Position numbers and translations under genes: made by a program. The notes beneath the pieces are model-generated. The model was not told the DNA's origin, did not search any database, and saw only the letters and a program-made list of their open reading frames with translations. Below, in pieces: positions 6,588 through 28,836 of a stretch of DNA of 32,000 nt. Each line of letters opens with the position of its first letter. Within the stretch, counting starts at the first letter, position 1. The stretch is taken from NCBI RefSeq assembly GCF_042660085.1, contig NZ_JBHSTI010000008.1, forward strand, positions 2,085,604 to 2,117,603, written 5' to 3'. The stretch comes from Longivirga aurantiaca (GTDB lineage: Bacteria; Actinomycetota; Actinomycetes; S36-B12; CAIYMF01).

Positions 6588-8936
6588 TCAGGCGCGGGCG
6601 GTGAACGCCGTCGACGGGGCCGACGGGATGTTCCAGCCCTTGGCGTTGTACGCCTTCACGGTGCAGGTGTACGACTTGCCGGCCGTGAGCGACACGACCG
6701 TGGCCGTACGGACCCGGCCGATCTGGGCAATGCCGTCCTTGGCCGTGACCACGGTCGACTTGATGCTCGAGCCCGAGCGGCAGAGCGCCTGGTACTTGGT
6801 GATGACCAGGCCGCGCGGGTTCGGCGCCTTCCACGCCACGACGACCTTCTTGCCGGCGAGGGCCGTGCGGGTCGGCTTGGCGATCTTGGCCGCGGTCGCG
6901 TTCACGGTGAAGTAGTAGACCGAGACGGGCTTGGTCGTCGGGTGGGCCACCCAGTTCGAGCCCACCCCGTTGGTCACCGTGAGCTTGATGCGGTACTTGC
7001 CGGCCTTGGCGTAGGCGTGCCGGACCACCGTGGACCCGACCGGGTAGGTCACCGTGCGGCTCGTGCCGTCGCCGAAGTCCCAGACCGCGGTCTGCGGGGC
7101 GCCGGTGGAGACGTCGGTGAGCTCGAGGAGCAGCCGATGCCGGTCCGGGAACCTGTACGTGAAGCGTGCTGCCGGAGCCTGGCCGACGACGACCGTCTTG
7201 GTGACCGAGTCGGTCGCGAAGCCGTTGTCGACCTCGAGGGTGATCGTCTTGGTGCCCGCCGTGGCGAACGTGTGCGACGGGTTCTCCGCGGTGCTCGTGC
7301 CCTCACCGGGACCGAAGTTCCAGGTCCAGCTGGTCGGCTTGCCGAGCGAGGTGTCGGTGAAGTCGACCGTGAGGCCGTCCGCGTTGCCGACCTCGTCCGG
7401 GATGGTCGAGGTGAACGCCGCCACCGGGGCGCGGAACAGATCGTTGAACCAGTAGCGGCGGGTGATGCTCAGCGGGTTCGCGTTGAGGTTGGCCACCGTG
7501 GTGTCGGTCGCCAGCACCATCGTGCCGTAGGTCCGGTTCACGATCTGCGCCGAGACGGTCGGGTCGGACAGGCCGTCCGGCTTGCTCGTCGTGGCGCCGG
7601 CGGTGTTGGCCGAGTTGGCCATCACGACGTCGGCGGCCGAGGCCTCGAACGCGCCGGAGAGCGGCACGCTCACGTGCTCGATCACGCCGATCACGTTGGT
7701 GTTGAGCGACGGGTCGTCCGGCACCGAGTAGAAGACGTCGACCTTGCGACGGCTGTTGTCGAGCGAGATGACCGGGCGGGTGCCCGCCTGGCCGACGGTG
7801 GTGACCGTGGTGTCGGCTGCGAGGTCGACGTAGCCGGCGTTCTGGTCGGTGAGCGCGGTGCCGCCCGAGCGCGGCTGCAGCTTGAAGACCTGCAACAGCG
7901 GGTCGTTGGGGTCCACCACCCGCGGCGTCACGCCGTCCGGCTCGACGGTGTCGTCGAGCGAGGTCTTCACGACCGCGTACACCGGCGAGGTCAGGCCCGA
8001 GGTCGGGTCGGTGACCAGCGCGAGGTGGTTGTCGGCGCTGTCGGCGCCCGAGGTGAGCCGGGTGCCGAAGAAGTTGCCGGTGCCGAAGCTGTCGCCCACG
8101 CGGTGGCGCGCGACGTAGAAGCCCTCGTTGCCCACGCTCTGGTTGCTGAACATGATGGTGACGAAGCCGTCGGCGGCGGTGATGGCCGAGACGTCGTCGC
8201 TGGTCAGCGTGGTGGAGCCCAGGACGTCCGGCGCGAGCAGCGTGTTCTTGGTCCACTGCACGACGAACGGGGTGACGAAGGTCGGCGGGGTGACGCCGTT
8301 GGCCGTGCCCCTGGTGTTGGTGGCGTACGGGCGACGGTTGTAGGTGTAGGTCGCCATGACCTTGCCGTCGGTCAGCTGCGCGATGGCGAGCGCGGACAGC
8401 CCGCGGCCGACGATGGTGACGGGGAAGTTCTCGTCGAGCACCCAGGTGCCGTCGACGAGCGAGTAGCGCATGAGCTTGGCGTCGTTGTCGGCGCCGGCGG
8501 TGGTCGGGAGGCTCGTGGTGTTGCGCTCGGTCACGACGTGCGTCGCCACGAAGAGCTTGTTGACAGCCCCGTTGTAGAGCGAGTCGGACGACGTGCCGTT
8601 GCGGGAGTCGATGACGACGTTGGTGTCGGTCCACGTCGGCGTGCCGGTCTCGCGGCCGTCGAGCCGGTGGATGCTCGTGCCCGTGCTGCCCTGGTTCTGC
8701 ATCGCGGCCCACCACGTGCCGCCGGCGTACCAGACCTTGTGCTGGTTCTTGGCCGCGGTGGGGGGGGTCGGCAGGGACGACAGCGTGCCGTTGACCTGCA
8801 GCTGCACCTGGCCGCTGTAGCCGACACTGGCGACCGCCTGCGCGACGGTGGGGACGGCGACGACGAGACTGACAGCAAGTGCGGCGGTGACGCCCAGTGC
8901 TGCCAGCGCGCGCCCGCGCCTCAGGACAGTCTTCAT
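6588..8936 (-). CDS. Secreted multidomain protein (paralog 3, divergent): related N-terminal domain, 2 PKD domains, C-terminal FN3-like domain
   Basis: I chose the start at ATG 8936 (MKTVLRRGRALAALGVTAALAVSLVVAVPTVAQA), which is preceded by GGAGGAA. The ORF track extends to 9008. The protein shares landmark motifs with paralogs 1 and 2 (HKVWYAGGTWWAAM...SIHRLD...WTDTNVVIDSR..SSD.LYNG..LFVATH; MNNATS-like ...ATTSKP). It has PKD signatures (WTWNFGPGEGTS, WDFGDGTS). The FN3 tail ends in the same AFTARA as paralog 2. Confidence 0.85.
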   Translation of the reverse strand: MKTVLRRGRALAALGVTAALAVSLVVAVPTVAQAVASVGYSGQVQLQVNGTLSSLPTPPTAAKNQHKVWYAGGTWWAAMQNQGSTGTSIHRLDGRETGTPTWTDTNVVIDSRNGTSSDSLYNGAVNKLFVATHVVTERNTTSLPTTAGADNDAKLMRYSLVDGTWVLDENFPVTIVGRGLSALAIAQLTDGKVMATYTYNRRPYATNTRGTANGVTPPTFVTPFVVQWTKNTLLAPDVLGSTTLTSDDVSAITAADGFVTIMFSNQSVGNEGFYVARHRVGDSFGTGNFFGTRLTSGADSADNHLALVTDPTSGLTSPVYAVVKTSLDDTVEPDGVTPRVVDPNDPLLQVFKLQPRSGGTALTDQNAGYVDLAADTTVTTVGQAGTRPVISLDNSRRKVDVFYSVPDDPSLNTNVIGVIEHVSVPLSGAFEASAADVVMANSANTAGATTSKPDGLSDPTVSAQIVNRTYGTMVLATDTTVANLNANPLSITRRYWFNDLFRAPVAAFTSTIPDEVGNADGLTVDFTDTSLGKPTSWTWNFGPGEGTSTAENPSHTFATAGTKTITLEVDNGFATDSVTKTVVVGQAPAARFTYRFPDRHRLLLELTDVSTGAPQTAVWDFGDGTSRTVTYPVGSTVVRHAYAKAGKYRIKLTVTNGVGSNWVAHPTTKPVSVYYFTVNATAAKIAKPTRTALAGKKVVVAWKAPNPRGLVITKYQALCRSGSSIKSTVVTAKDGIAQIGRVRTATVVSLTAGKSYTCTVKAYNAKGWNIPSAPSTAFTARA

Positions 8937-10088: not shown

Positions 10089-10352
10089 GCTCCTCCTCCA
10101 ACGGGGTGCTGCGCGTCGTGCGGGTCGCACCCTTCCTGGATCGGCACGACCGTCGTGCGGGCTGGTGTGCGGAGCCCGGGTCGTTACCGTTCCGTGATCG
10201 GGGGTGAGCCCATCACGGACCCCGGAAGCACGTCTACGACCCGTCCGGTGAGCGAGACGCAGGCCTCTGACCTGCGACGACCGGTCCGCCTCGGGCCCGG
10301 TGAACGGTCCGACGGTCACCGGGAGACCCCTCACCCGTTCGGCCCAGCCGTA

Positions 10353-10830
10353 TCAGCCGTCCCACCGACCCCAGCGGCCCCGGCAGCCCTCGGCTCCCGA
10401 CCGCCGTCGGAGGAGCGGGCGGATCAGGAGCACCCGCACGACGCCGAGCACGAGGATCGCGAGCGGCACGGCGACGAGCACGACACGCGTCGAGTCGGTC
10501 GCGGAGATGTCCGCCTCGGCCAGGAGCTCCTCGGCGCGGGTCGCGTCGCGGTCCGCCGCCACCTGCTCGGGAACGACGTACGACGGCAGGATGATCGCGG
10601 TCCACGGGCTCGGGCGCCTCGAGGTCTTCCCCCATGACCACGTCGACGACCTCGCCGAGGCCGTCGAGGATCCCGGAGTCCTCCTCGGAGGGTCCGGTTC
10701 TGCGCTGCCCGGGTTCTGCGCTGCCCGGGTTCTGCGCTGCACGGGTTCTGCGCTGCCCCGATCTGCGTCCCTCGGGCCTGCGCTGCCCGGGTTCTGCGTC
10801 CCTCGGGCCTGCGCTGCTCGTACCGCTCAT
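10353..10830 (-). pseudogene. Candidate small single-pass membrane protein, frame-disrupted (or shorter gene starting at GTG 10562)
   Basis: ATG 10830 is preceded by GGAG and opens a frame through the repeat array into an acidic segment (SEEDSGILDGLGEVVDVVMGEDLEAPEPVDRD) with protein-like composition. At about 10585-10600 the protein-like, GC3-rich frame switches. It then reads IILPSYVVPEQVAADRDATRAEELLAEADISATDSTRVVLVAVPLAILVLGVVRVLLIRPLLRRR (one TM helix) up to the stop at 10353. The original frame continues Arg/Gly/Pro-rich to 10234. Alternatively, only 10353-10562 (69 aa) is coding. Confidence 0.35.
10696..10820. repeat. Tandem repeat array: four 16-bp units (ggttctgcgctgcccg) followed by two ~31-bp units (the same unit with a 15-bp insert tccctcgggcctgcg)
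   Basis: Direct reading places units at 10696-10711, 10712-10727, 10728-10743 (1 mismatch) and 10744-10759, followed by 10760-10789 and 10790-10820. The unit length is not a multiple of 3. Confidence 0.9.
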
Positions 10831-10903
10831 CCCGCTCCGCGTCGCGTCGTTCGCCCGCGCGGCAGCGGGTCGCGCCCGGGGCCGGGGCGCGGTCGTTCTC
10901 GGG

Positions 10904-12286
10904 TCAGACGCGGGTACGGCGACGGGCAGCAGGTCTCGGCCCGTCGACCGCGACGGGCAGCACTCGCGGAGCGGCGAGCCCGACGAGGTCGAGCGCCCGC
11001 TGCATGGCCTCGAGCGCGCGCGCCGGGTCGCCGATCCGCTGGTAGACCTCGGCGAGCTGCCGCCACGCCTGTGCGGCGTACCGCGAGGCGTCGGACGACT
11101 CGAGCGAGGCCGCGGCGTCCTCGAGCATGCTGACTCCTGCCGCCTCCTCCCCCAGCGCCACCGACGCGGCTCCGAGGAGCACCAGCGAGTGCGCCCGCTC
11201 GAGCCGCTGGTCGACGTCGAGGCGCTCGAGCGAGGCGGCCGCGTGGCGGCGCGCCACCTCGGGCCGGCCGAGCAGCAGCTCGGCGCGGGCGAGCTCGGAC
11301 AGCACGGGGCCGAGGAGCATCGACCCGGCGTGCTGGCGGACCTCGGGCAGCAGCGACCGCAGCTCGGCGCGCGCCTCGGTGGCGCGCGGCGGGTCCTGCT
11401 GCAGCAGGATCCAGGCCCTCGTGTAGCGCAGGCGCGTGCGGACCATGAGATCGCTGCCGACGGCCGCCAGGGCCGAGGCCTCCTCCACCAGCCGCATGCC
11501 CTCGCCGCCGAAGCCGCGCTCGGTGGCGTTGATCGCGGCGTTCCAGAGCGCCTTGGCGCGGTCGTCCGGGGATGAGTCGGCACCGAGCCGCTCGATCAGG
11601 TCGTCGAGGATCACCTGCGCGCGCACGAGGTCCCCCCGCTCGGCGTACACCCCTGCAACCGTCGAGACCAGTGCCGCGAACCCCGGTGCGTGGTCGATCC
11701 GGAGGTCGGCACCGCGACGAAGCGCCGCCTCGCCGAGGTCGACCGCGCGGGCCATGTCGCCCTGCTCGCGGTAGAGGCGCAGCAGCGAGACGCTCACGCC
11801 GACCCAGGGCAGTCGGGCGGGTGCGGACTCGGCGGCGGTACGCATCGTCTCGAGCAGCCGCAGCGCCTCGAGCAGGTGGCCCTGCCGCTCGAGCGCGGCT
11901 GCCCGCACCTCGGCGGCATGGAAGAGCTCGGGTTCGGCGACGAGGGCAGCGGCGTCGGAGAGCCGCGGCTCCCACGGCGCGAGCAGCGCCAGCGCCTCCG
12001 CCGGGTTGCCGAGCCCGAGCGCGGCCTGCGCGAGCAGGAGGTCGTGCCGAGGCCCTGCAGCGGCGTCCGGCGCGAGCGCGGTCGGGGCGACGCCGAGGCG
12101 CCCGGCGAGCAGGGCGACGACCGCGGGCGTCGGGTCGCGGCGCCCGGACTCGAGGTGGCTGACGTAGCTGGGCGAGAGGTCGTCGCCGGCGAGGGCCGTC
12201 TGCGAGAGACCTGCGGCGAGCCGGGCACGGCGCAGCCGGGAGCCGAAGGTCTCGACTCCCGCGTCGCGATCGGCTCCTCGAGCCAC
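10904..12286 (-). CDS. XRE-family HTH transcriptional regulator with long C-terminal TPR/helical-repeat domain
   Basis: The N-terminus FGSRLRRARLAAGLSQTALAGDDLSPSYVSHLESGRRDPTPAVVALLAGRLGV is a classic XRE/Cro-type HTH. About 380 aa of Ala/Leu-rich two-helix repeats follow (…EALRLLE…, …GDMARAVDLGEAAL…, …GDLVRAQVILDDL…, …AQAWRQLAEVYQRIGDPARALEAMQRALDL). I chose the start at GTG 12286, which is preceded by GAGAGGGG. The track start at 12340 is also possible. Confidence 0.8.
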   Translation of the reverse strand: MARGADRDAGVETFGSRLRRARLAAGLSQTALAGDDLSPSYVSHLESGRRDPTPAVVALLAGRLGVAPTALAPDAAAGPRHDLLLAQAALGLGNPAEALALLAPWEPRLSDAAALVAEPELFHAAEVRAAALERQGHLLEALRLLETMRTAAESAPARLPWVGVSVSLLRLYREQGDMARAVDLGEAALRRGADLRIDHAPGFAALVSTVAGVYAERGDLVRAQVILDDLIERLGADSSPDDRAKALWNAAINATERGFGGEGMRLVEEASALAAVGSDLMVRTRLRYTRAWILLQQDPPRATEARAELRSLLPEVRQHAGSMLLGPVLSELARAELLLGRPEVARRHAAASLERLDVDQRLERAHSLVLLGAASVALGEEAAGVSMLEDAAASLESSDASRYAAQAWRQLAEVYQRIGDPARALEAMQRALDLVGLAAPRVLPVAVDGPRPAARRRTRV

Positions 12287-12335
12287 GTCGACCCCTCTCG
12301 CCCACTCGGTCGAGCGGCGGCGACATCCAACCACC

Positions 12336-12370
12336 GTCACGCGCGCCCACCCCCGTGGGGCGCGCGTGAC
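12336..12370. promoter_or_regulatory. GC-rich near-perfect palindrome in the divergent regulator/peptide intergenic region (candidate operator or 5'-UTR hairpin)
   Basis: The sequence gtcacgcgcgcccac cccc gtggggcgcgcgtgac has arms of about 15-16 bp with one bulged G. It is followed by the only AT-rich stretch in the region (12381-12430), which carries direct repeats ATGACTC (12399, 12425) and TGTCAyG (12410, 12421). Confidence 0.45.
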
Positions 12371-12468
12371 GGTGGCCCTATCGAACTATGACCAGTTTAT
12401 GACTCACTTGTCACGTTGTGTGTCATGACTCGCCCGGTCGGGCGAGTCCGTCCTTCGTGGAGGTCCTC

Positions 12469-12606
12469 ATGAACGTCACCCGCCGCACGCACGTCCTGCT
12501 CGCCGCCGCGCTCGCGGTCGCGGCCGCCCTCGGCCTCGTGACCGCCGGCCCGCCGGCCGCCCCCGAGCCGACCCTCGTGGCCGGCGGGTCGGGGCACTGC
12601 TGCTGA
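12469..12606 (+). CDS. 45-aa secreted small peptide, C-terminus GGSGHCC (candidate signalling pro-peptide or RiPP-like precursor)
   Basis: ATG 12469 lies 5 nt after GGAGG (12459-12463). Nearly all codons end in G/C. The sequence is MNVTRRTHVLLAAALAVAAALGLVTAGPPAAPEPTLVAGGSGHCC, with a basic RR n-region, an Ala/Leu hydrophobic core, a Pro-rich spacer and a Cys-Cys C-terminus. It is transcribed divergently from the HTH-TPR regulator. Confidence 0.55.
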   Translation: MNVTRRTHVLLAAALAVAAALGLVTAGPPAAPEPTLVAGGSGHCC

Positions 12607-12645
12607 GCGGCCCTCGCGGCACGGGCCTCGCGGCAGGCGGCGGGG

Positions 12646-13181
12646 TCACGGGATCGGGACGACCCGGCCCCGGCCCTGCTGCGTGCCGCCGTACAGCGCG
12701 GCGTCGGCCCGCGCGGTGCCGCCGCCCTGGCAGAGCATGCGCATGCGGACCGCCCTCGGCGAGCCGTCGTGCATCGCGGCGAGGTTCGACATCGCCCAGG
12801 CGAGGTCGCGGGGATCGATGAAGTCCGTGCCCGGCCGGTCGACGACCTCGGAGGCTCCCAGCCGAGGATGTCGAGCACCCCCGCGGACGTCCACAGGACC
12901 GTGCCGTCGGCGAACTGGGCGAAGGCCTCCTGCGCGGCCACGAGGTCGCGGGCGTCGGTGAAGCCGAAGCCGCTGCGCCCGATCACCTCGGCGGCGGTCC
13001 ATCCGAGGAAGCGCTCGCTGCCGTCCGAGATCCAGTCGACGACGCCGTCCGGGGTGATGCGGAAGACGACGTCCGTCGCGTTCTCGGCCAGGACGCGGTA
13101 CCGCTCCTCGCTGGCGAGAAGGCCGTCGGACCCGTCCGCGCAGGCCTCCGGCTGCCCGCCGCAGATCGGGCACACCTGCAC
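12646..13181 (-). pseudogene. Small PAS-domain protein, frameshifted near 12848-12860
   Basis: GTG 13181 is preceded by GGGAGG. Frame 1 reads VQVCPICGG...SEERYRVLAENATDVVFRITPDGVVDWISDGSERFLGWTAAEVIGRSGFGFTDARDL...DGTVLWTSAGVLDILGWEP and then degenerates. The continuation SEVVDRPGTDFIDPRDLAWAMSNLAAMHDGSPRAVRMRML...VVPIP* is in another frame (the tail of track ORF 12646-13623). Joining the two gives the canonical PAS motif LGW.p.EVvgRpg.dFidP.D. Confidence 0.6.
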
Positions 13182-13289
13182 GCCCGGCCTCCCGGAGGAG
13201 CTCCCACCTCGGAGTGGGGGCGGAGCCCATCACGCGCCGATTCTCGACCGGCCCGACCTCCGGATGCGTGCCGAGCCGGAGGCCGAAGC

Positions 13290-13535
13290 TCAGGCGGGGC
13301 TGCCGGGATCCGCGTCCGTCGCGGCGGCCTCGGCGGCACGCGGCAGCCCGTCCGTCAGGTCGATCACGGCCGGCTCGCGCAGGTCGACGACGTCGCGGTG
13401 GACCGGCACGGCCCGTCGGTAGATGTGGGCGTACTCGGCCGCGTGCGCATCGCACGCGGTGTCGACGCTGTTGTGGGAGTCGCGGTCCGAGAGCAGGTAC
13501 GTCGTGGCCTCGGCACCGCACCAGCTGCAGTGCAT
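13290..13535 (-). CDS. Hypothetical 81-aa protein with CxxC...C..H (possible zinc-ribbon-like) N-terminus
   Basis: ATG 13535 lies 5 nt after GGAGG. The sequence is MHCSWCGAEATTYLLSDRDSHNSVDTACDAHAAEYAHIYRRAVPVHRDVVDL... with good GC3. The track ORF extends upstream through low-quality sequence. Confidence 0.55.
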   Translation of the reverse strand: MHCSWCGAEATTYLLSDRDSHNSVDTACDAHAAEYAHIYRRAVPVHRDVVDLREPAVIDLTDGLPRAAEAAATDADPGSPA

Positions 13536-15579: not shown

Positions 15580-16797
15580 TCAGATCGCGCGGAACGCGAC
15601 CGCGTCGACGACCTCGCGCTCGTAGTCGTCACTGCGTCGGTCGAGCCGCACGAGCGGTCCGCCGATCGTCTTGCGCACCCACAGCGTCGTCGAGGTGCCG
15701 CTGTCGAGGCGGATCGCGGTGACGGCTCCGAGCTGCTTGAGGAGCCCGGCGAACTGGTGCACCGAGACGCCGCCCCACGAGCTGCCGAACTGCTTGCCCG
15801 CGATCGCGACGACGAGCATGTTGCCCTGCGCGTCCCAGGCGATCGCCGAGCGCGGGCGCGGCTGCTCGTCGCGCGAGCTGCACGGCGCGTCGACCGCGCC
15901 GTCGCGCACGATCGCACCGCCGCTGCCCGTCGCGCCGCTCGGCTTGCTGAACGCGGTGGCCGGGTAGCCGGCGTACCGCGTGGTGCCGTTCGCGCCGTAC
16001 CAGAGCGTGGCCGGGTCGCCGACCTTGACCTTGGCGAGGAGCGAGGCGGCGCCGCTGCCGGTGCGCGCGGTGAGGAACTTCTCCCACGTCGCCGGGCGCC
16101 GAGATGCTGCCGTGCCCGTGAGGATCTTGGTGACCTTGGTGCCCGCGACGACCACGACGCGCGAGCCCGCCGGGTGGGCGCGGGTTCCCCAGGCGTTCGT
16201 GTAGACCGCGACGCCCTGGCTCGGCAGCATCTGCCAGTTCACCGAGCCCACCATCGCGCTGCCCGCGCGCGTGCTGAAGCTGCCGGCCAGGTCGAAGGCT
16301 CCACCGGTGATCGTCTTGTTGACCGAGTCGACCGCGATGCCGCCGTACAGGCCGCCGGAGTACGCCTGGCGCACCAGCTTGCGCAAGACGCCCTTCGAGA
16401 TCTGCACGCGGTCCGGGATGCCGGGCACGCTCGGGTCGAACGTGCCGCCGTTGAGGACGACGACGGCGTTGGGGTCGCCCGCGACCATCGTGGAGACCCG
16501 GGCGGCGCGCGCGACGGTCGGCGAGGTCACGACCGTCGGGGTGAGCGACGCCTTCGGGATGCGCACGACGGCGAGGCGGCGGTCGCCCTCGGTGAACGAG
16601 CGCGTGTTGGTGTCCCAGATGCGCACGGTGGCGCCGCCGGGCAGGGAGTACGACGAGACCGGTGCCGAGGCGAGGATCGCCGGCGTCGGCTTGCAGACCA
16701 CGGCGGCGGCCGGGTTGGCGGGCGTGGCCGACAGCAGCGTGACGGACAGCGCGGCGACGCCGAGGGCGGCAGCGGCGGTGCGGGTGCGCGAGCGCAT
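15580..16797 (-). CDS. Secreted phosphodiester glycosidase family protein (NAGPA/DUF2233-like)
   Basis: I chose the start at ATG 16797 (MRSRTRTAAAALGVAALSVTLLSATPANPAAA signal), which is preceded by GAGAAGGA. The C-terminal region RSAIAWDAQGNMLVVAIAGK...GVSVHQFAGLLKQLGAVTAIRLDSGTSTTLWV matches the family pattern (R.aiG....g.lllv.vdG......G.tl.ela.ll..lGa..AlnLDGGGSst). Confidence 0.75.
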   Translation of the reverse strand: MRSRTRTAAAALGVAALSVTLLSATPANPAAAVVCKPTPAILASAPVSSYSLPGGATVRIWDTNTRSFTEGDRRLAVVRIPKASLTPTVVTSPTVARAARVSTMVAGDPNAVVVLNGGTFDPSVPGIPDRVQISKGVLRKLVRQAYSGGLYGGIAVDSVNKTITGGAFDLAGSFSTRAGSAMVGSVNWQMLPSQGVAVYTNAWGTRAHPAGSRVVVVAGTKVTKILTGTAASRRPATWEKFLTARTGSGAASLLAKVKVGDPATLWYGANGTTRYAGYPATAFSKPSGATGSGGAIVRDGAVDAPCSSRDEQPRPRSAIAWDAQGNMLVVAIAGKQFGSSWGGVSVHQFAGLLKQLGAVTAIRLDSGTSTTLWVRKTIGGPLVRLDRRSDDYEREVVDAVAFRAI

Positions 16798-16921
16798 CGA
16801 GGTCCTTCTCGTCGTGACGTGCGGCTGCCCCGGCAGGCGGCCCACCGGCGTTATCGACCCTGGGCGCGGAGGTCTGAAGCGACCGCCACCCGTTCGCCGA
16901 CCACGCCCATGTCAAGAACCT

Positions 16922-16950
16922 TTGACATCACGTACAGCATGCTTTACCTT
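16922..16950 (+). promoter_or_regulatory. Candidate sigma-70-type promoter for the membrane-protein/HTH/oxidoreductase operon
   Basis: TTGACA (16922-16927), a 17-nt spacer and TACCTT (16945-16950) sit in a locally AT-richer region. A second TTGACATC copy lies at 16968, and an inverted TGTCAA and the palindrome agcatgct lie between them. These could be operator sites for the small HTH protein encoded downstream. Confidence 0.35.
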
Positions 16951-16990
16951 CTGCGTGTCAAGCATTCTTGACATCGACGAAGGAGGAGCC

Positions 16991-17431
16991 GTGGGCTTCG
17001 AGGAGCGGAACACCTGGTCGTTCCTGGTGATCAGCGTGGTGTCCTACGCGACGTACGTCGTGCTCGTGCTGCGGTCCGCCGCCGGCGGTCCGCTCGTGGA
17101 CGCGCCGTACCAGCGCTACCTGCTCGGCACGATCGGCTTCGCGATCCTCGCGGCGATCATCTCCAGCATCGCCATCCGGATCGCCATGGCGGTGCGGACC
17201 GGCAAGGAGGACCAGGGCGCCGACCAGCGCGACCGAGAGATCTCGGCGTTCGGCTCGCGCATGGGCCAGTCGTTCATGGTGATCGGCGGCCTCGCCGCGA
17301 TGCTCATGGCCCTCGCCGAGTGGGACTGGTTCTGGATCGCCAACGTGATCTACCTCTGCTTCGCGCTCTCGGGCCTCACCGAGTCCATCGCCCGCATCGC
17401 CGCCTACCGCGGAGGGCTCCCCCAGTGGTGA
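16991..17431 (+). CDS. Small integral membrane protein (146 aa, ~4 TM), partner of the downstream small HTH regulator
   Basis: GTG 16991 directly follows GAAGGAGGAG. The sequence is VGFEERNTWSFLVISVVSYATYVVLVL...LLGTIGFAILAAIISSIAIRIAMAV...FMVIGGLAAMLMALAEWDWFWIANVIYLCFALSGL. The stop overlaps the next start (GTGA). Confidence 0.75.
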   Translation: MGFEERNTWSFLVISVVSYATYVVLVLRSAAGGPLVDAPYQRYLLGTIGFAILAAIISSIAIRIAMAVRTGKEDQGADQRDREISAFGSRMGQSFMVIGGLAAMLMALAEWDWFWIANVIYLCFALSGLTESIARIAAYRGGLPQW

Positions 17432-17658
17432 GGCCCACGCGGGTCACCAACCGCATCCGCGCGCTGCGCTTCGAGCACGGCGAGATGACCCAGGCCGAGC
17501 TCGCGAAGAGCATCGGTGCCACCCGCCAGACCGTCATCGCCATCGAGCAGGGCAAGTACTCCCCCACCCTGGAGATGGCCTTCCAGATCGCAGCCGTCTT
17601 CGGCGTACCTCTCGACGACGTGTTCCAGTACCCCACCAGCTTGGAGAGCACCCCATGA
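17428..17658 (+). CDS. Small XRE-family helix-turn-helix transcriptional regulator (76 aa)
   Basis: The sequence NRIRALRFEHGEMTQAELAKSIGATRQTVIAIEQGKYSPTLEMAFQIAAVFGVPLDDVFQY is the typical short Cro/C1-type regulator found next to small membrane proteins. Its start overlaps the upstream stop (GTGA) and its stop overlaps the downstream start (ATGA). Confidence 0.85.
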   Translation: MRPTRVTNRIRALRFEHGEMTQAELAKSIGATRQTVIAIEQGKYSPTLEMAFQIAAVFGVPLDDVFQYPTSLESTP

Positions 17659-18695
17659 AGGCCTTGACCCAGTCCGCGTACGGCTCGCCCGACACCTTCG
17701 TCGTCCGCGAGCTCCCCGCCCCCAGCGCCGCCGCCGACGAGGTGGTCGTGCGCGTCGAGGCCGTCGGCCTCAACGCCGCCGACTGGCACCTGTTCCGCGG
17801 CAAGCCGTACGCCGCCCGCGCCGCCTTCGGCCTGCGCCGTCCGAAGAATCCCGTCATGGGCTCGGACGTCTCGGGCGTCGTCGTGCAGGTCGGGTCCGAC
17901 GTCACGACGTTCGCCGTCGGCGACGAGGTGATGGTCGAGGCTCAGCGCGGCGGCCTCGCCGAGCTCGTCGCGGTGAAGGCGACGCACGTGGCGCGCAAGC
18001 CGGCGTCGTTCACCTTCCTCGAGGCGGCCACGCTGCCGCTCGCCGGCGGCACCGCGCTGCAGGCGCTGCGCGACCACGGCAAGGTCCGGGCCGGAGAGAG
18101 CGTTCTCGTGATCGGCGCGTCCGGCGGCGTCGGCACCTGGGCGGTGCAGATCGCGGTCGCGCTCGGCGCCGAGGTGACCGGTGTGTGCAGCACCCGCAAC
18201 GTCGACCTCGTCCGCTCGCTCGGTGCCGCGCACGTCGTGGACTACACCGCGACCGACGTGCTCGCGGCGGGCACGACGTACGACGTGGTGATCGACATGA
18301 TCGGCGACGTCCCCCTGCGCGAGTGCCGCCGCCTGCTCTCCCCCGGCGGCCGCTACGTGATGGTCGGCGGTGGCGAGGGCGGCCGGATCCTCGGCCCGGT
18401 GTTCGGTCCGATGGGCCGCACGTTCGGCACGTTCGTGCTCGGCCGGGGCGGCGAGAAGCGCTCGCTCAACGCGGCGATCGCCAAGCGCGACGGTGCCGAC
18501 GTCGAGGTGCTGCGCGAGATGGCCGACGCCGGATCGCTGAAGCCCTCGATCGAGAAGGTGTACGCGTTCGACGACGCCCGCGAGGCGCTCGCGCAGATCG
18601 AGACCGGCCGCGTCGCCGGCAAGCTCGCGATCGCCGTGGGGTCGTACGCCGCCGAGCAGCACGCCACTGCCGGCGACGAGGCGTCCACCACCTGA
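17655..18695 (+). CDS. Zinc-type alcohol dehydrogenase / NADPH:quinone oxidoreductase family (MDR superfamily) protein
   Basis: The protein has the GroES-like N-terminus (EVVVRVEAVGLNAADWHLFRGKP...VMGSDVSGVVVQVGSDVTTFAVGDEV) and the Rossmann motif VLVIGASGGVGTWAVQIA. Confidence 0.9.
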   Translation: MKALTQSAYGSPDTFVVRELPAPSAAADEVVVRVEAVGLNAADWHLFRGKPYAARAAFGLRRPKNPVMGSDVSGVVVQVGSDVTTFAVGDEVMVEAQRGGLAELVAVKATHVARKPASFTFLEAATLPLAGGTALQALRDHGKVRAGESVLVIGASGGVGTWAVQIAVALGAEVTGVCSTRNVDLVRSLGAAHVVDYTATDVLAAGTTYDVVIDMIGDVPLRECRRLLSPGGRYVMVGGGEGGRILGPVFGPMGRTFGTFVLGRGGEKRSLNAAIAKRDGADVEVLREMADAGSLKPSIEKVYAFDDAREALAQIETGRVAGKLAIAVGSYAAEQHATAGDEASTT

Positions 18696-26317: not shown

Positions 26318-28723
26318 TCACTTCGTCGAGGTGAGCTTCACCCACATCGACGTCTTGTTCTGGTTGATCACACGGATCCTGACGCCGGCGTTGGGCACCT
26401 TCACGCCCGCACCCGGAGCCTCCGCGTACCAGTAGGTGCGGCTGTCGTCGAAGACTGGCTGCGCCTTCTGGCTCTTGATCTTGTTGAGCTCGCTGTTCAG
26501 GTGCAGGTAGAGCGCGTCCGTGCGCTGCACCGAGAACGGGGCGTCGTACACCTGCACGCGACCACGCCACGGCGTGCCGTCGTTGCGGAGCAGGGGCACG
26601 GGGTGCGAGTCGATCGGGAGGATCAGGCCCTCGCCGGGGTGCTCGCTCTTGTTGTTGTCGTTGAACGAGGTGTCCCAGTACGAGATGAGCAGGCCGTCCT
26701 GGTACGGGAAGTGCTCGACCTTGTTGGTGTTCACGTCGTTGAACCCGAAGTTGTACGGACCCGTCTTCAGGTAGACGTCGTACGACGTGTACGCGCGGTA
26801 CGAGGCGATGTAGTAGTGGTTGTACGGCGCGGTCGAGGAGGCACCGACGGCCGCGAAGCCGTCCGAGGTCCAGCCGTTGTCGCCGCTCTCGGCACCGTCC
26901 GAGAACACCGTGTTCGCACCGGCGGTGACGGCGATGTCGTCGGCGAAGAAGCCGATCCCACCGACGGCGCCGTCGGTCGCGTAGCGGAAGCGCAGGTCGA
27001 CCGTCTTGCCGGCGTACGCCGACAGGTCCACCGTCGCCGGCACCCAGGCTCCGTTCGAGGAGCCGTCGATGCCGTTGTTCTCCGCAGGCTGGGTGACGCC
27101 GGCAGCGGGCAGCGACTTGAAGCCGGTGCCGTCGTCGACCTCGATGTACGCGTAGTCGCACGGGGTGTCGCCGCAGTCCTCGACGTCCCAGTTGGCCTGG
27201 AACGTGAGGGTCGCCGCCGGGCTGGCGGGCACCGCGACCGAGCGGGTGAGCGTGTTGTTCAGGTCGTCACCCGATCCCGACCACCAGGAGCTCGCACCCG
27301 ACTTCGGCGGCACGAGATCGATCGTGACGTCCTTCGGCGGGAGCACCACGATGAGCGACTGCGGCAGCGCGGTGTTGTACTCATGCGGGCCGAGCTTCAG
27401 GGTCGTGGTGTCGCCTGCGAAGGCGACCCGGTAGTCGAGCCACCCCAGCTGGAGCTTGTCCCAGGCCGAGAGGTCGGCAGAGCGGGTGCCGATGCCCTGG
27501 TCGCCCGGCTTCCACACACGGCTCTGGGCCATGAGGGTCCACCAGTCGACGCCGTTGTCGCCGCCGCCCGCCGTGTCGTAGTGGTCCGGCAGACCGAGGT
27601 CGTGGCCGTACTCGTGCGTGAAGACCGACAGGCCGCCGTTCTCGGGCTGGATGGTGTAGTCGCCGATCCAGACGCCGGTCTCGCCGATCTGGGTGCCGCC
27701 GAGCGGCGCGGCCGCGGGGCCGTCACCCTCGGAGCCGTCGAAGAAGGCGTACCAGCGGTGGCTCCAGATGGCGTCCTCACCCTGGTACGGGTCGCCATCG
27801 GCCTCGTCGCCACCGGCGTGCACGATCTGGAAGTGGTCGATGTAGCCGTCGGCCTCGTTGAAGTTGCCGTCGCCGTCCGCGTCGTAGCGGTCCCACTGGT
27901 CGAAGGTCGCGAGCTCGGCGGCGATGTCCGCGTCGCTGCGGCCGGCGGCCTTCTGGTCAGCGACCCACTGGTCGGCGGCGTCGCGGATGAGGGCCCAGGT
28001 GTTCGTGCAGACGATGTCGCCGCAGTCGTTGCGACCGTAGCGGGCCTCGTTGTACTTCACCTTCACCCAGTTGCTGACGGTGCCGTCGACGCTGTAGCGG
28101 CCCGAGCTCTGGCGCTGGTAGTAGGTCTTGAGCGACTCGACCCCGTACCCGGTGCCGAAGTACATCTTCTGGAAGAACGCCTGGTTGGAGTCCGCCTGCC
28201 AGACCGTGGAGTTGTCGGACGTCGCCGGCTTGGGGATCTGGTTGTGCAGCGGGCCGTCGAAGACGGTCGGCCCGGGGGTGTCGGGGTCGGAGTCGACGTC
28301 GGGGTACGCCGGGTCACGGTCGTTGCCGAACTCGGCGAGGATCACGAAGATCTTGTCCGTCGTCTCGCGCGCGAGCTCGACGTAGTTGTGGGTCCTGTTG
28401 ACGCTGTACCCGGACGACGCGCGCCGCGACGACGCGTTCGCCGCGGTGGCCGACGCTCCTGGGCCGAGGTCGACGACGGTGCTGCCGCCCCGCTGCACCG
28501 GAGTCGCCGTGCCGTCCAGGACCGCCTGCAGAGCGGCCTGGCGCTCGGCGCGACGCTTGTCCTCGAGCGGGTTCGGCAGATCATGGTTCTGGCCCTTGGC
28601 CGTGGACACCGCGGACGGTGCCTTGGCCCCGTCGGTCGATACGGCACTCGCTGCTGCTCCACCGGTGGCGATGCTTCCGCACACCAGGGCGAGCCCCAGG
28701 AGCCCCACTACGGGTCGACGCAC
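26318..28723 (-). CDS. Secreted M6-family metalloprotease (immune inhibitor A / InhA-like)
   Basis: This is an 801-aa ORF. The signal peptide is MRRPVVGLLGLALVCGSIATGGAAASA. The zinc motif is FTHEYGHDLGLPDHYD (HExxHxxGxxD, typical of M6). The GTG start is preceded by GGGGAGGGAAGA. Confidence 0.9.
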   Translation of the reverse strand: MRRPVVGLLGLALVCGSIATGGAAASAVSTDGAKAPSAVSTAKGQNHDLPNPLEDKRRAERQAALQAVLDGTATPVQRGGSTVVDLGPGASATAANASSRRASSGYSVNRTHNYVELARETTDKIFVILAEFGNDRDPAYPDVDSDPDTPGPTVFDGPLHNQIPKPATSDNSTVWQADSNQAFFQKMYFGTGYGVESLKTYYQRQSSGRYSVDGTVSNWVKVKYNEARYGRNDCGDIVCTNTWALIRDAADQWVADQKAAGRSDADIAAELATFDQWDRYDADGDGNFNEADGYIDHFQIVHAGGDEADGDPYQGEDAIWSHRWYAFFDGSEGDGPAAAPLGGTQIGETGVWIGDYTIQPENGGLSVFTHEYGHDLGLPDHYDTAGGGDNGVDWWTLMAQSRVWKPGDQGIGTRSADLSAWDKLQLGWLDYRVAFAGDTTTLKLGPHEYNTALPQSLIVVLPPKDVTIDLVPPKSGASSWWSGSGDDLNNTLTRSVAVPASPAATLTFQANWDVEDCGDTPCDYAYIEVDDGTGFKSLPAAGVTQPAENNGIDGSSNGAWVPATVDLSAYAGKTVDLRFRYATDGAVGGIGFFADDIAVTAGANTVFSDGAESGDNGWTSDGFAAVGASSTAPYNHYYIASYRAYTSYDVYLKTGPYNFGFNDVNTNKVEHFPYQDGLLISYWDTSFNDNNKSEHPGEGLILPIDSHPVPLLRNDGTPWRGRVQVYDAPFSVQRTDALYLHLNSELNKIKSQKAQPVFDDSRTYWYAEAPGAGVKVPNAGVRIRVINQNKTSMWVKLTSTK

Positions 28724-28836
28724 TCTTCCCTCCCCAATTTCGGCCGGGCCGCGATGCGCCCCGGCGCAAACATGGCCACGGAGATCGTCCGTGGTCCACG
28801 CGGCAACCTAGGTGCCGGTGATGACCGCTGCCAGCA

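Follow-up and report, generated by a model that had tools for sequence, protein, structure and literature searches.

RRNPP-type signalling systems, which pair a peptide pheromone with a cytoplasmic receptor, are assigned by reviews and large surveys to Bacillota and the mobile elements of this phylum only (PMC10075063, PMC12700828). Their operational signature has five points: a propeptide of 10-100 amino acids (aa), a Sec/SPI (signal peptidase I) signal, a receptor of 250-500 aa, tetratricopeptide repeats (TPRs) C-terminal to any helix-turn-helix (HTH) domain, and receptor and propeptide genes that are direct neighbours, with an intergenic distance of -60 to 400 bp (PMC10075063). RRNPP_detector, which uses this five-point definition, has been applied only to Firmicutes and viruses (PMC10075063). 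We analysed a 32,000-nucleotide stretch of the actinomycete Longivirga aurantiaca (Sporichthyales; contig NZ_JBHSTI010000008.1, positions 2,085,604 to 2,117,603; 72% G+C; hereafter the window), in which the gene of an HTH-TPR regulator diverges from a small open reading frame (ORF) for a putatively exported 45-aa peptide ending in Cys-Cys (CC). Quorum sensing in actinobacteria is thought to use small molecules, e.g. gamma-butyrolactones, and our searches of the literature on RRNPP systems, HTH-TPR proteins, Cys-Cys secreted peptides, and peptide quorum sensing in Actinomycetota and Streptomyces found no actinobacterial system reported. The cassette formed by these two genes is real and conserved, and apparently undescribed before. 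We give an even chance to the reading that its two genes serve peptide signalling in the manner of RRNPP quorum sensing, with the peptide as the ligand of the regulator.

PlcR-PapR of the Bacillus cereus group resembles the pair in its XRE-type HTH with C-terminal TPRs and in an adjacent Sec pro-peptide of ~48 aa, the C-terminal residues of which are the signal. It is autoregulatory and acts via a palindromic box, and PlcR gives the best colinear match to the regulator among proteins of solved structure. The two systems differ in that PlcR has 285 aa and 5 TPRs, compared to 460 aa and ~9-10 helix pairs in the regulator. In addition, PapR is free of cysteines, its gene is located downstream of plcR, and PlcR is found in Bacillota only. 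NprR-NprX and AimR-AimP share with the pair receptors of ~390-420 aa with an HTH and about nine TPRs, Sec-exported pro-peptides of ~43 aa, and a two-gene module without dedicated export or modification genes (PMC10075063). No sequence-level relationship between these receptors and the regulator was detected, however, and their peptide codes diversify without a family-wide invariant motif. In Rgg-SHP and PrgX-PrgQ the receptor and peptide genes are divergent and have a common regulatory region, as in the window. SHP and PrgQ carry no Sec signals and use PptAB and Eep (PMC10075063), and Rgg has a different repeat domain.

The regulator gene (10904-12286, minus strand, GTG start at 12284-12286 in the ORF list) encodes 460 aa. 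The XRE-type HTH and the TPR-like domain that the initial annotation had read in it were both recovered by Pfam above cut-off, with HTH_31 (E = 1.6e-11) and HTH_3 at the N-terminus followed by TPR_12, TPR_14, and TPR_2. TPR_MalT scored 43.2 bits, just below its 45-bit cut-off, as the second-best-scoring Pfam family after HTH_31. An AlphaFold2 model (mean predicted local distance difference test score, pLDDT, 86.8; predicted template-modelling score, pTM, 0.70) begins with an HTH of five helices, which a short linker of low confidence joins to 19 further helices. The HTH DNA-binding domain covers approximately residues 14-71 (12074-12247, minus strand; helices 14-24, 29-33, 39-46, 54-64, and 68-71), and the superhelical TPR-like domain of ~9-10 helix pairs, the presumed ligand-binding domain, approximately residues 79-435 (10982-12052, minus strand). 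The top Foldseek matches of the model in the PDB were LGN/Pins, OGT, and consensus TPRs (E ~1e-7 to 1e-8; template-modelling (TM) scores of at most 0.69, normalised by target length). LGN/Pins and OGT are peptide-binding TPR superhelices, in agreement with the peptide-binding groove initially proposed for the C-terminal domain.

Twelve HTH residues (R17, R22, G26, S28, Q29, L32, S40, Y41, S43, E46, R50, and P52) are invariant in 18 aligned homologues, and this invariance extends to homologues at 33% identity. The HTH matches the HTH domains of C.AhdI, ComR, and SinR in the PDB. In the sequence-profile search PlcR (2qfc) was the sole solved protein to align colinearly with the HTH and the TPRs that follow (query residues 7-195 vs. 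PlcR 3-189, 189 residues, E = 9.3e-12); ComR and Rgg matched in the HTH only, and MalT (1hz4) was also among the PDB matches. The PlcR match is suggestive of remote relatedness to RRNPP, not of membership. A 460-aa database protein matches the regulator at a reported 100% identity, with one residue differing in the N-terminal region, and homologues are equally long. When 1.84 billion cluster representatives (50% identity clusters) were searched exhaustively with HMMER, 896 relatives were returned at E<=1e-30. The top 150 were all below E = 1e-89 and mostly near-full-length at ~430-475 aa, with a few fragments or longer multi-domain proteins. Viral contigs of IMG/VR gave HTH-only matches and no full-length homologue, so from these scans the regulator family does not appear to be phage-borne.

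The small ORF (12469-12606 with its stop codon, plus strand) encodes the 45-aa pre-peptide MNVTRRTHVLLAAALAVAAALGLVTAGPPAAPEPTLVAGGSGHCC and is separated from the divergent regulator gene by 182 bp. The features first ascribed to it all stand: a Shine-Dalgarno sequence GGAGG (12459-12463, plus strand) with a 5-nt spacer, a G+C content at third codon positions (GC3) of 1.00, and the terminal residues VAGGSGHCC. It is an exact match to a "hypothetical protein" of L. aurantiaca at NCBI, and among the 150 window ORFs of 25-140 aa it alone has both a hydrophobic run and CC among its final 10 residues. A rule-based reading predicts a Sec-type signal peptide MNVTRRTHVLLAAALAVAAALGLVTA (12469-12546, plus strand), in which a basic n-region and a hydrophobic h-region precede the cleavage motif V-T-A. 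The C-terminal core VAGGSGHCC (12577-12603, plus strand), conserved and presumably the mature signal, has the family motif G-[P/A]-x-x-C-C.

Conservation of the pair was assessed by scanning the one-genome-per-species GTDB set with the alignment of 18 regulator homologues. A total of 329 stretches encode relatives, from which the best 80 loci were taken; with three further loci added via exact-protein look-ups, 84 loci were assessed overall. Their flanks were screened for small ORFs with a hydrophobic run preceded by Lys/Arg and with CC in the last 10 residues, and a tblastn rescue added three. In 77 of the 84 loci (33-100% identity) a CC signal-peptide ORF of 36-79 aa, its CC among the final 12 residues, adjoins the regulator homologue or is found close to it; such conservation had been set as the test of the initial annotation, and the result upheld it. 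The paired loci belong to Sporichthyales, Nanopelagicales, Micrococcales, Streptosporangiales, Streptomyces, Micromonosporales, and other lineages. Elsewhere in the ~600 kb of flanking DNA only two unrelated ORFs had the same properties. For four of the seven loci without a peptide (L006, L014, L036, and L054) the flank needed is cut by a contig end.

The arrangement of the two genes varies by clade. In clade A (Longivirga and metagenome-assembled genomes (MAGs) of Nanopelagicales and Frankiales type) the peptide gene diverges from the regulator gene, and the peptides have CC as their last two residues (GPGHCC, PPTCC, PPRCC, GPPVCC, VPACC). In clade B (Cellulomonas, Cellulosimicrobium, Actinotalea, and other Micrococcales) the peptide gene is read in the same direction as the regulator gene and precedes it with a median spacer of 139 bp, and the motif G-A-x-G-C-C has R or K after it and then a further 0-5 residues. 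In the 17 loci of clade C (Streptosporangiaceae and soil MAGs) the gene order is regulator gene, convergent S9 prolyl-oligopeptidase-family gene, peptide gene, with a DsbA-like gene coming next in six loci. In clade D (Streptomyces sasae, S. violascens, and Streptomyces sp. NPDC057253) the peptide gene comes after the regulator gene in convergent orientation, and the motif is GPGPCC... An all-against-all clustering of 545 neighbouring ORFs revealed no third gene, be it an enzyme, an exporter, or an oligopeptide permease (Opp), common to all clades; the flanking genes are clade-specific. In L. aurantiaca the pair is intact though both flanking genes have decayed. Because gene order and neighbours change from clade to clade while the pair is kept, even amid decayed neighbours, the linkage is functional and not merely inherited synteny.

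High-GC genomes contain many spurious ORFs, so the small ORF could be a chance ORF in GC-rich DNA, its likeness to RRNPP propeptides being a coincidence. The comparative data refute this explanation, to which we attach next to no probability: the ORF is conserved across orders together with its ribosome-binding site (RBS) and its motif, and AGGAG or GGAGG precedes nearly all homologous small ORFs. Judged by its substitutions, it is under purifying selection. Pooled ratios of non-synonymous to synonymous differences per site (pN/pS) were 0.46, 0.35, 0.24, and 0.13 in four groups of close relatives, the peptide genes of L057 and L066 differ by 6 synonymous and 0 non-synonymous changes, and a single, more divergent pair from clade C gave 0.82. 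Purifying selection and the conserved RBS together indicate that the small ORF is translated. Gene callers have annotated its homologues in many genomes. A cluster look-up of eight peptides returned "hypothetical protein" for all except one with an evidently wrong "Spy/CpxP" label, and no family in Pfam or NCBIfam matches the peptide.

The family comprises 73 distinct peptides of 36-79 aa (median 45). All have a short basic n-region and a hydrophobic core, and by the same rule-based reading nearly all have an A-x-A-type site at the same place, with the predicted cleavage site a median of 15 residues before the end of CC. CC is invariant, Gly is found at -4 in 53 and Pro/Ala at -3 in 59 of the 73 peptides; 23 end exactly at CC, and in 32 an Arg or Lys follows immediately. 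Within clades (including L085 and L001-L003) the spacer after the signal peptide is variable while the ~9 residues ending in CC are constant, which is the pattern of a pro-peptide with an active C-terminal product. The same combination of variable spacer and conserved C-terminal core is found in PapR, Phr, and AimP (PMC10075063). We regard it as very improbable that the small ORF instead encodes a membrane-anchored protein with an uncleaved helix, i.e. a membrane toxin or sensor subunit under XRE-type control. Its single hydrophobic helix, its size of 36-79 aa, and its position adjoining an XRE regulator gene would suit such a protein, but A-x-A-type motifs follow the h-region in nearly all members, the extracytoplasmic C-terminal core and not the helix is the most conserved part, and the cytoplasmic N-terminus would have just 3-8 residues.

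Measured against the five-point definition, the pair has a propeptide of suitable size (45 aa in the window, 36-79 aa in the 73 homologues), a receptor of suitable length (460 aa; homologues 430-475 aa), and TPRs after the HTH both in Pfam and in the AlphaFold2 model. The Sec signal was judged by rule only, from the basic n-region, the h-region, and the A-x-A-type site of the window peptide and nearly all homologues. The genes are direct neighbours in the window (182 bp) and in clades A, B, and D; in clade C this point fails since the S9-peptidase gene intervenes in the 17 loci. The pair in the window agrees with the other four points of the operational definition and, going by the rule-based reading, with the Sec point as well, and the RRNPP-like architecture first proposed for the locus is borne out to that extent.

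If the cassette works like an RRNPP system, the 45-aa pre-peptide would be exported via Sec and cut by signal peptidase after ...VTA. The released peptide of ~19 aa, possibly trimmed to the C-terminal core ending in G-x-x-x-C-C, would then accumulate outside the cell; the basic residue that follows CC in clade B, like the Pro ahead of CC in clades A, C, and D, resembles a processing site for such trimming. The peptide would be re-imported, presumably by a general oligopeptide permease, and would bind the concave groove of the TPR domain in the cytoplasmic regulator. Binding would shift the occupancy of TGAC[A/T] sites in the shared promoter region by the regulator, and the changed occupancy would alter transcription of the peptide gene, of the regulator gene in an autoregulatory loop, and of other targets.

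The DNA that separates the two genes is strongly conserved in five clade A genomes, and the repeats in it had initially been taken for operator sites. Both ATGACTC (12399 and 12425) and TGTCAyG (TGTCACG at 12409, TGTCATG at 12421) are indeed present twice. They lie in an AT-rich block of TGAC[A/T] or [A/T]GTCA 5-mers (12387-12430), which start at 12400, 12409, 12421, and 12426, with an additional ATGAC at 12387. The block holds 4 of the 21 TGAC[A/T] sites of the window within 30 bp and hardly varies among L085 and L001-L003. In the upstream regions of 73 non-identical peptide genes, drawn from all clades, TGAC[A/T] occurs in direct and inverted orientation at a mean of 3.0 per 140 nt, compared to 0.4 in shuffled sequences, a 7.5-fold enrichment; hexamers with a TGAC core are enriched 15-26 times. 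The density of TGAC[A/T] in 37 co-directional peptide-regulator spacers, which lie upstream of the regulator gene, is five times the average of all loci. A conserved DNA motif together with invariant HTH residues fits one regulator family that controls its own cassette, and the AT-rich block is, from motif statistics, a candidate operator of the regulator and a better one than the GC-rich palindrome next to it.

This palindrome exists as initially annotated at 12336-12370, but its extent had been understated: the arms are 18 nt and not ~16 bp long (12331-12348 and 12358-12375, minus strand), 100% complementary, and separated by a 9-nt loop. It was rejected as an operator. Eight of its 21 predicted pairs show compensatory double changes among five genomes, and it lies directly downstream of GTGACA-N18-CATAGT (12385-12414, minus strand), the only sigma-70-like promoter in the intergenic region (1 site in the promoter scan vs. 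0.0 expected in shuffles), which overlaps the TGAC cluster and would serve the regulator gene. Because of the compensatory substitutions and the location downstream of the predicted promoter, the palindrome is probably a stem-loop in the 5' untranslated region (UTR) of the regulator mRNA. As RNA, the region folds at -69.6 kcal/mol (z = -5.2), with a second hairpin that covers the start codon and the Shine-Dalgarno sequence GAGAGGGG of the regulator (12292-12299, minus strand, 5 nt before GTG; kept in L085 and L001-L003). An Rfam search of 10600-13300 gave no credible family for the palindrome, and a sub-threshold match to a viral miRNA hairpin was dismissed. A further perfect palindrome with 10-nt arms, GACTCGCCCG-gt-CGGGCGAGTC (12427-12448, plus strand), unlisted in the initial annotation, lies between the TGAC block and the RBS of the small ORF. 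It is conserved in clade A, and short GC palindromes of a similar kind stand at this position in clades A and C. Probably it forms a 5' UTR stem-loop in the peptide mRNA or else serves as a second binding site.

Its family-wide invariant Cys-Cys sets this system apart from every known RRNPP family. A thiol or metal chemistry, which had been raised at the outset for the terminal His-Cys-Cys, is strengthened with regard to the cysteines, which are invariant across all clades, whereas the His is variable. This family-wide invariance suggests that the two thiols do chemistry, besides or instead of carrying information, and argues for a vicinal disulfide, an intermolecular disulfide, metal binding, or modification. 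The vicinal Cys-Cys probably makes the signal chemically switchable by a thiol/disulfide change or by metal binding, and the cassette could then report on cell density and, in addition, on redox or metal state. MerA (...CC..) and high-Mr thioredoxin reductase (...GC[C/U]G) have tails that resemble the peptide in chemistry only. In those proteins a flexible, Gly-flanked C-terminal Cys-Cys is redox-active or metal-binding as part of a large enzyme, in contrast to the secreted peptides of 15-25 aa considered here.

The same cysteines are central to another explanation, in which the small ORF is a regulated effector: a secreted thiol peptide that binds metal (Cu, Zn, or other) or acts as an extracellular redox buffer or chaperone, while the HTH-TPR protein senses some other cue, possibly a metal or a small molecule as in MalT-type TPR sensors. 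CC is invariant in the 73 distinct peptides while neighbouring residues vary, His precedes CC in the clade of the window, and genes for CtaG-like, CopC/CopD, and DsbA-like proteins occur near Streptosporangiaceae-type loci, as one would expect of a metal or redox effector. These copper and Dsb neighbours are, however, clade-specific, and homologue alignments searched for an invariant Cys or His in the regulator, a possible metal or disulfide partner, contained none, leaving it without conserved residues of this kind for a metal site. The TPR_MalT score, second-best in Pfam though below cut-off, and the PDB match to MalT link the regulator to the MalT-type TPR sensor domains found in large actinobacterial and in LuxR-family regulators. 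It differs from MalT in lacking an NTPase domain and in its N-terminal XRE HTH, as opposed to the C-terminal LuxR HTH of MalT, which senses a sugar and has no partner peptide gene. A strict two-gene linkage without a transporter or enzyme is the pattern of a ligand and its receptor, and the size and layout of the peptide fit pro-pheromones. On this balance we consider an effector role rather unlikely, though it is the foremost rival of the ligand-receptor reading.

Modification of the cysteines would be the essence of a third explanation, namely that the small ORF is the precursor of a ribosomally synthesised and post-translationally modified peptide (RiPP). Its Cys-Cys would be decarboxylated, cyclised, or prenylated by enzymes encoded elsewhere, under a pathway-specific regulator. 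Such a role is quite improbable: no clade has a conserved modifying enzyme beside the pair, neither NCBIfam nor Pfam recognises a precursor family, and the leader of the small ORF is of Sec type, whereas Sec signal peptides with A-x-A sites are not the usual leaders of RiPPs. The conserved C-terminal Cys motif in its G-P/A-x-x context would nonetheless suit a precursor, as would the S9 prolyl-oligopeptidase-family gene beside the peptide gene in 17 loci.

Several observations weigh against a peptide-signalling role of RRNPP type. The adjacent peptide is truly absent from L004 and L009 and probably from L011 (883 nt upstream to the contig end), and these three loci form one subclade. No oligopeptide permease gene was linked to the pair among its clustered neighbours. 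RRNPP-specific families of Pfam or NCBIfam did not match the regulator at E<=1, and RRNPP receptors were absent from the top 50 PDB matches in Foldseek, i.e. its fold is not closest to theirs. TGACA overlaps the -35 consensus, so part of the TGAC enrichment could be promoter signal. Lastly, a family-wide invariant CC is unlike the freely diversifying RRNPP peptides, and the main job of the peptide may perhaps be chemical and not informational. Because the RRNPP profiles and the fold ranking failed, we place the cassette as working like RRNPP systems and not as one of them; membership of the RRNPP homology family is not established.

Genes of cyclic di-GMP (c-di-GMP) turnover neighbour the cassette in two clades. 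In clade B an EAL-domain (c-di-GMP phosphodiesterase) gene lies divergently upstream of the peptide gene in L081/L082 (4776-5540, minus strand) and in 34 Micrococcales loci, and the two genes have a common TGAC-rich intergenic region. In the window a remnant of a PAS-PAS-GGDEF diguanylate cyclase gene (12646-13180, minus strand) follows the peptide gene. It is a pseudogene that has lost the GGDEF domain and the middle part, and matches residues 6-99 and 193-238 of the intact 440-aa orthologue of L085 in two frames; in relatives the gene is intact and convergent with the peptide gene. Taken together, the EAL and PAS-GGDEF neighbours of clades B and A, respectively, hint at a link between the cassette and c-di-GMP signalling.

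A bolder proposal, which we put forward tentatively and rate somewhat short of an even chance, is that these cassettes are the first family of RRNPP-type peptide pheromones and cytoplasmic receptors in Actinomycetota, ancient and widespread (~900 receptor clusters at 50% identity, at least six orders). The obligatory Cys-Cys would gate recognition through its thiol, disulfide, or metal state, so that density and extracellular redox or metal conditions are sensed together, and in Micrococcales the cassette would probably feed c-di-GMP turnover via the EAL gene. An RRNPP-like system would thereby be placed in a new phylum with a distinctive signal chemistry, a Cys-Cys peptide of possibly redox- or metal-dependent activity. 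If true, this would change the picture of actinobacterial quorum sensing and offer a new regulatory handle on actinobacterial physiology. The carriers include abundant freshwater and soil groups (Nanopelagicales-type MAGs, Cellulomonas, and Streptosporangiaceae) and some Streptomyces.

Further observations concern the surroundings of the cassette and of its homologues. Between the stop codon of the small ORF and the convergent PAS-gene remnant a strong stem-loop is predicted (12630-12689; RNA fold -63.1 kcal/mol, z = -3.0; no U-run), a possible bidirectional terminator; a consensus scan for canonical intrinsic terminators after the small ORF found none. Downstream of the regulator gene, at about 10350-10830 (minus strand), lies a decayed orthologue of a 253-aa membrane protein of L085, in two frames and with internal deletions. 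The 5' part of this gene contains a tandem repeat (10696-10817) of period 16 (7.8 copies) or, equivalently, 31. The sole other TGAC[A/T] cluster in the window is at 16910-16973, where two perfect palindromes TGTCAAG-N4-CTTGACA stand 46 bp apart, flanked by an NAGPA-like gene (15580-16911, minus strand) and a Zn-dependent dehydrogenase gene (17349-18695, plus strand). The regulator could have a second target in these palindromes, or they could serve an unrelated regulator as its operator.

In clade C the S9 prolyl-oligopeptidase-family gene of L026 (5306-7138, minus strand) and of 16 other loci is situated between the regulator and peptide genes and is divergent from the latter. The peptides of these loci carry P-x-x-CC, and the S9 protein may process or degrade them. 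The Streptosporangiaceae MAG locus L083 has, directly downstream of the regulator gene, a gene for a DUF5685 protein (7419-8609, plus strand) with a very Cys-rich C-terminus ...GGCCDCCECCECGECCDGGCCDCGCDC, followed by the gene of an AMP-binding enzyme and by CopC/CopD genes. Locus L014 (JAJAYQ010000108.1), with a regulator homologue of 39% identity and a short upstream flank, is on a contig binned as Spirochaetaceae, which is probably a mis-binned actinobacterial contig. MAG BP4.bin34 has two regulator paralogues, L006 and L010, which are 51% and 46% identical to the query. A CC peptide of its own (...GPLPCC) accompanies L010, and the upstream flank of L006 spans only 379 nt. Several cassettes per genome are typical for pheromone systems. 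In the window itself, 14 kb from the cassette, there is a gene for an InhA-like M6 secreted metallopeptidase (26318-28807, minus strand), mentioned here for its position only; InhA-type proteases of the Bacillus cereus group belong to the PlcR and NprR regulons.

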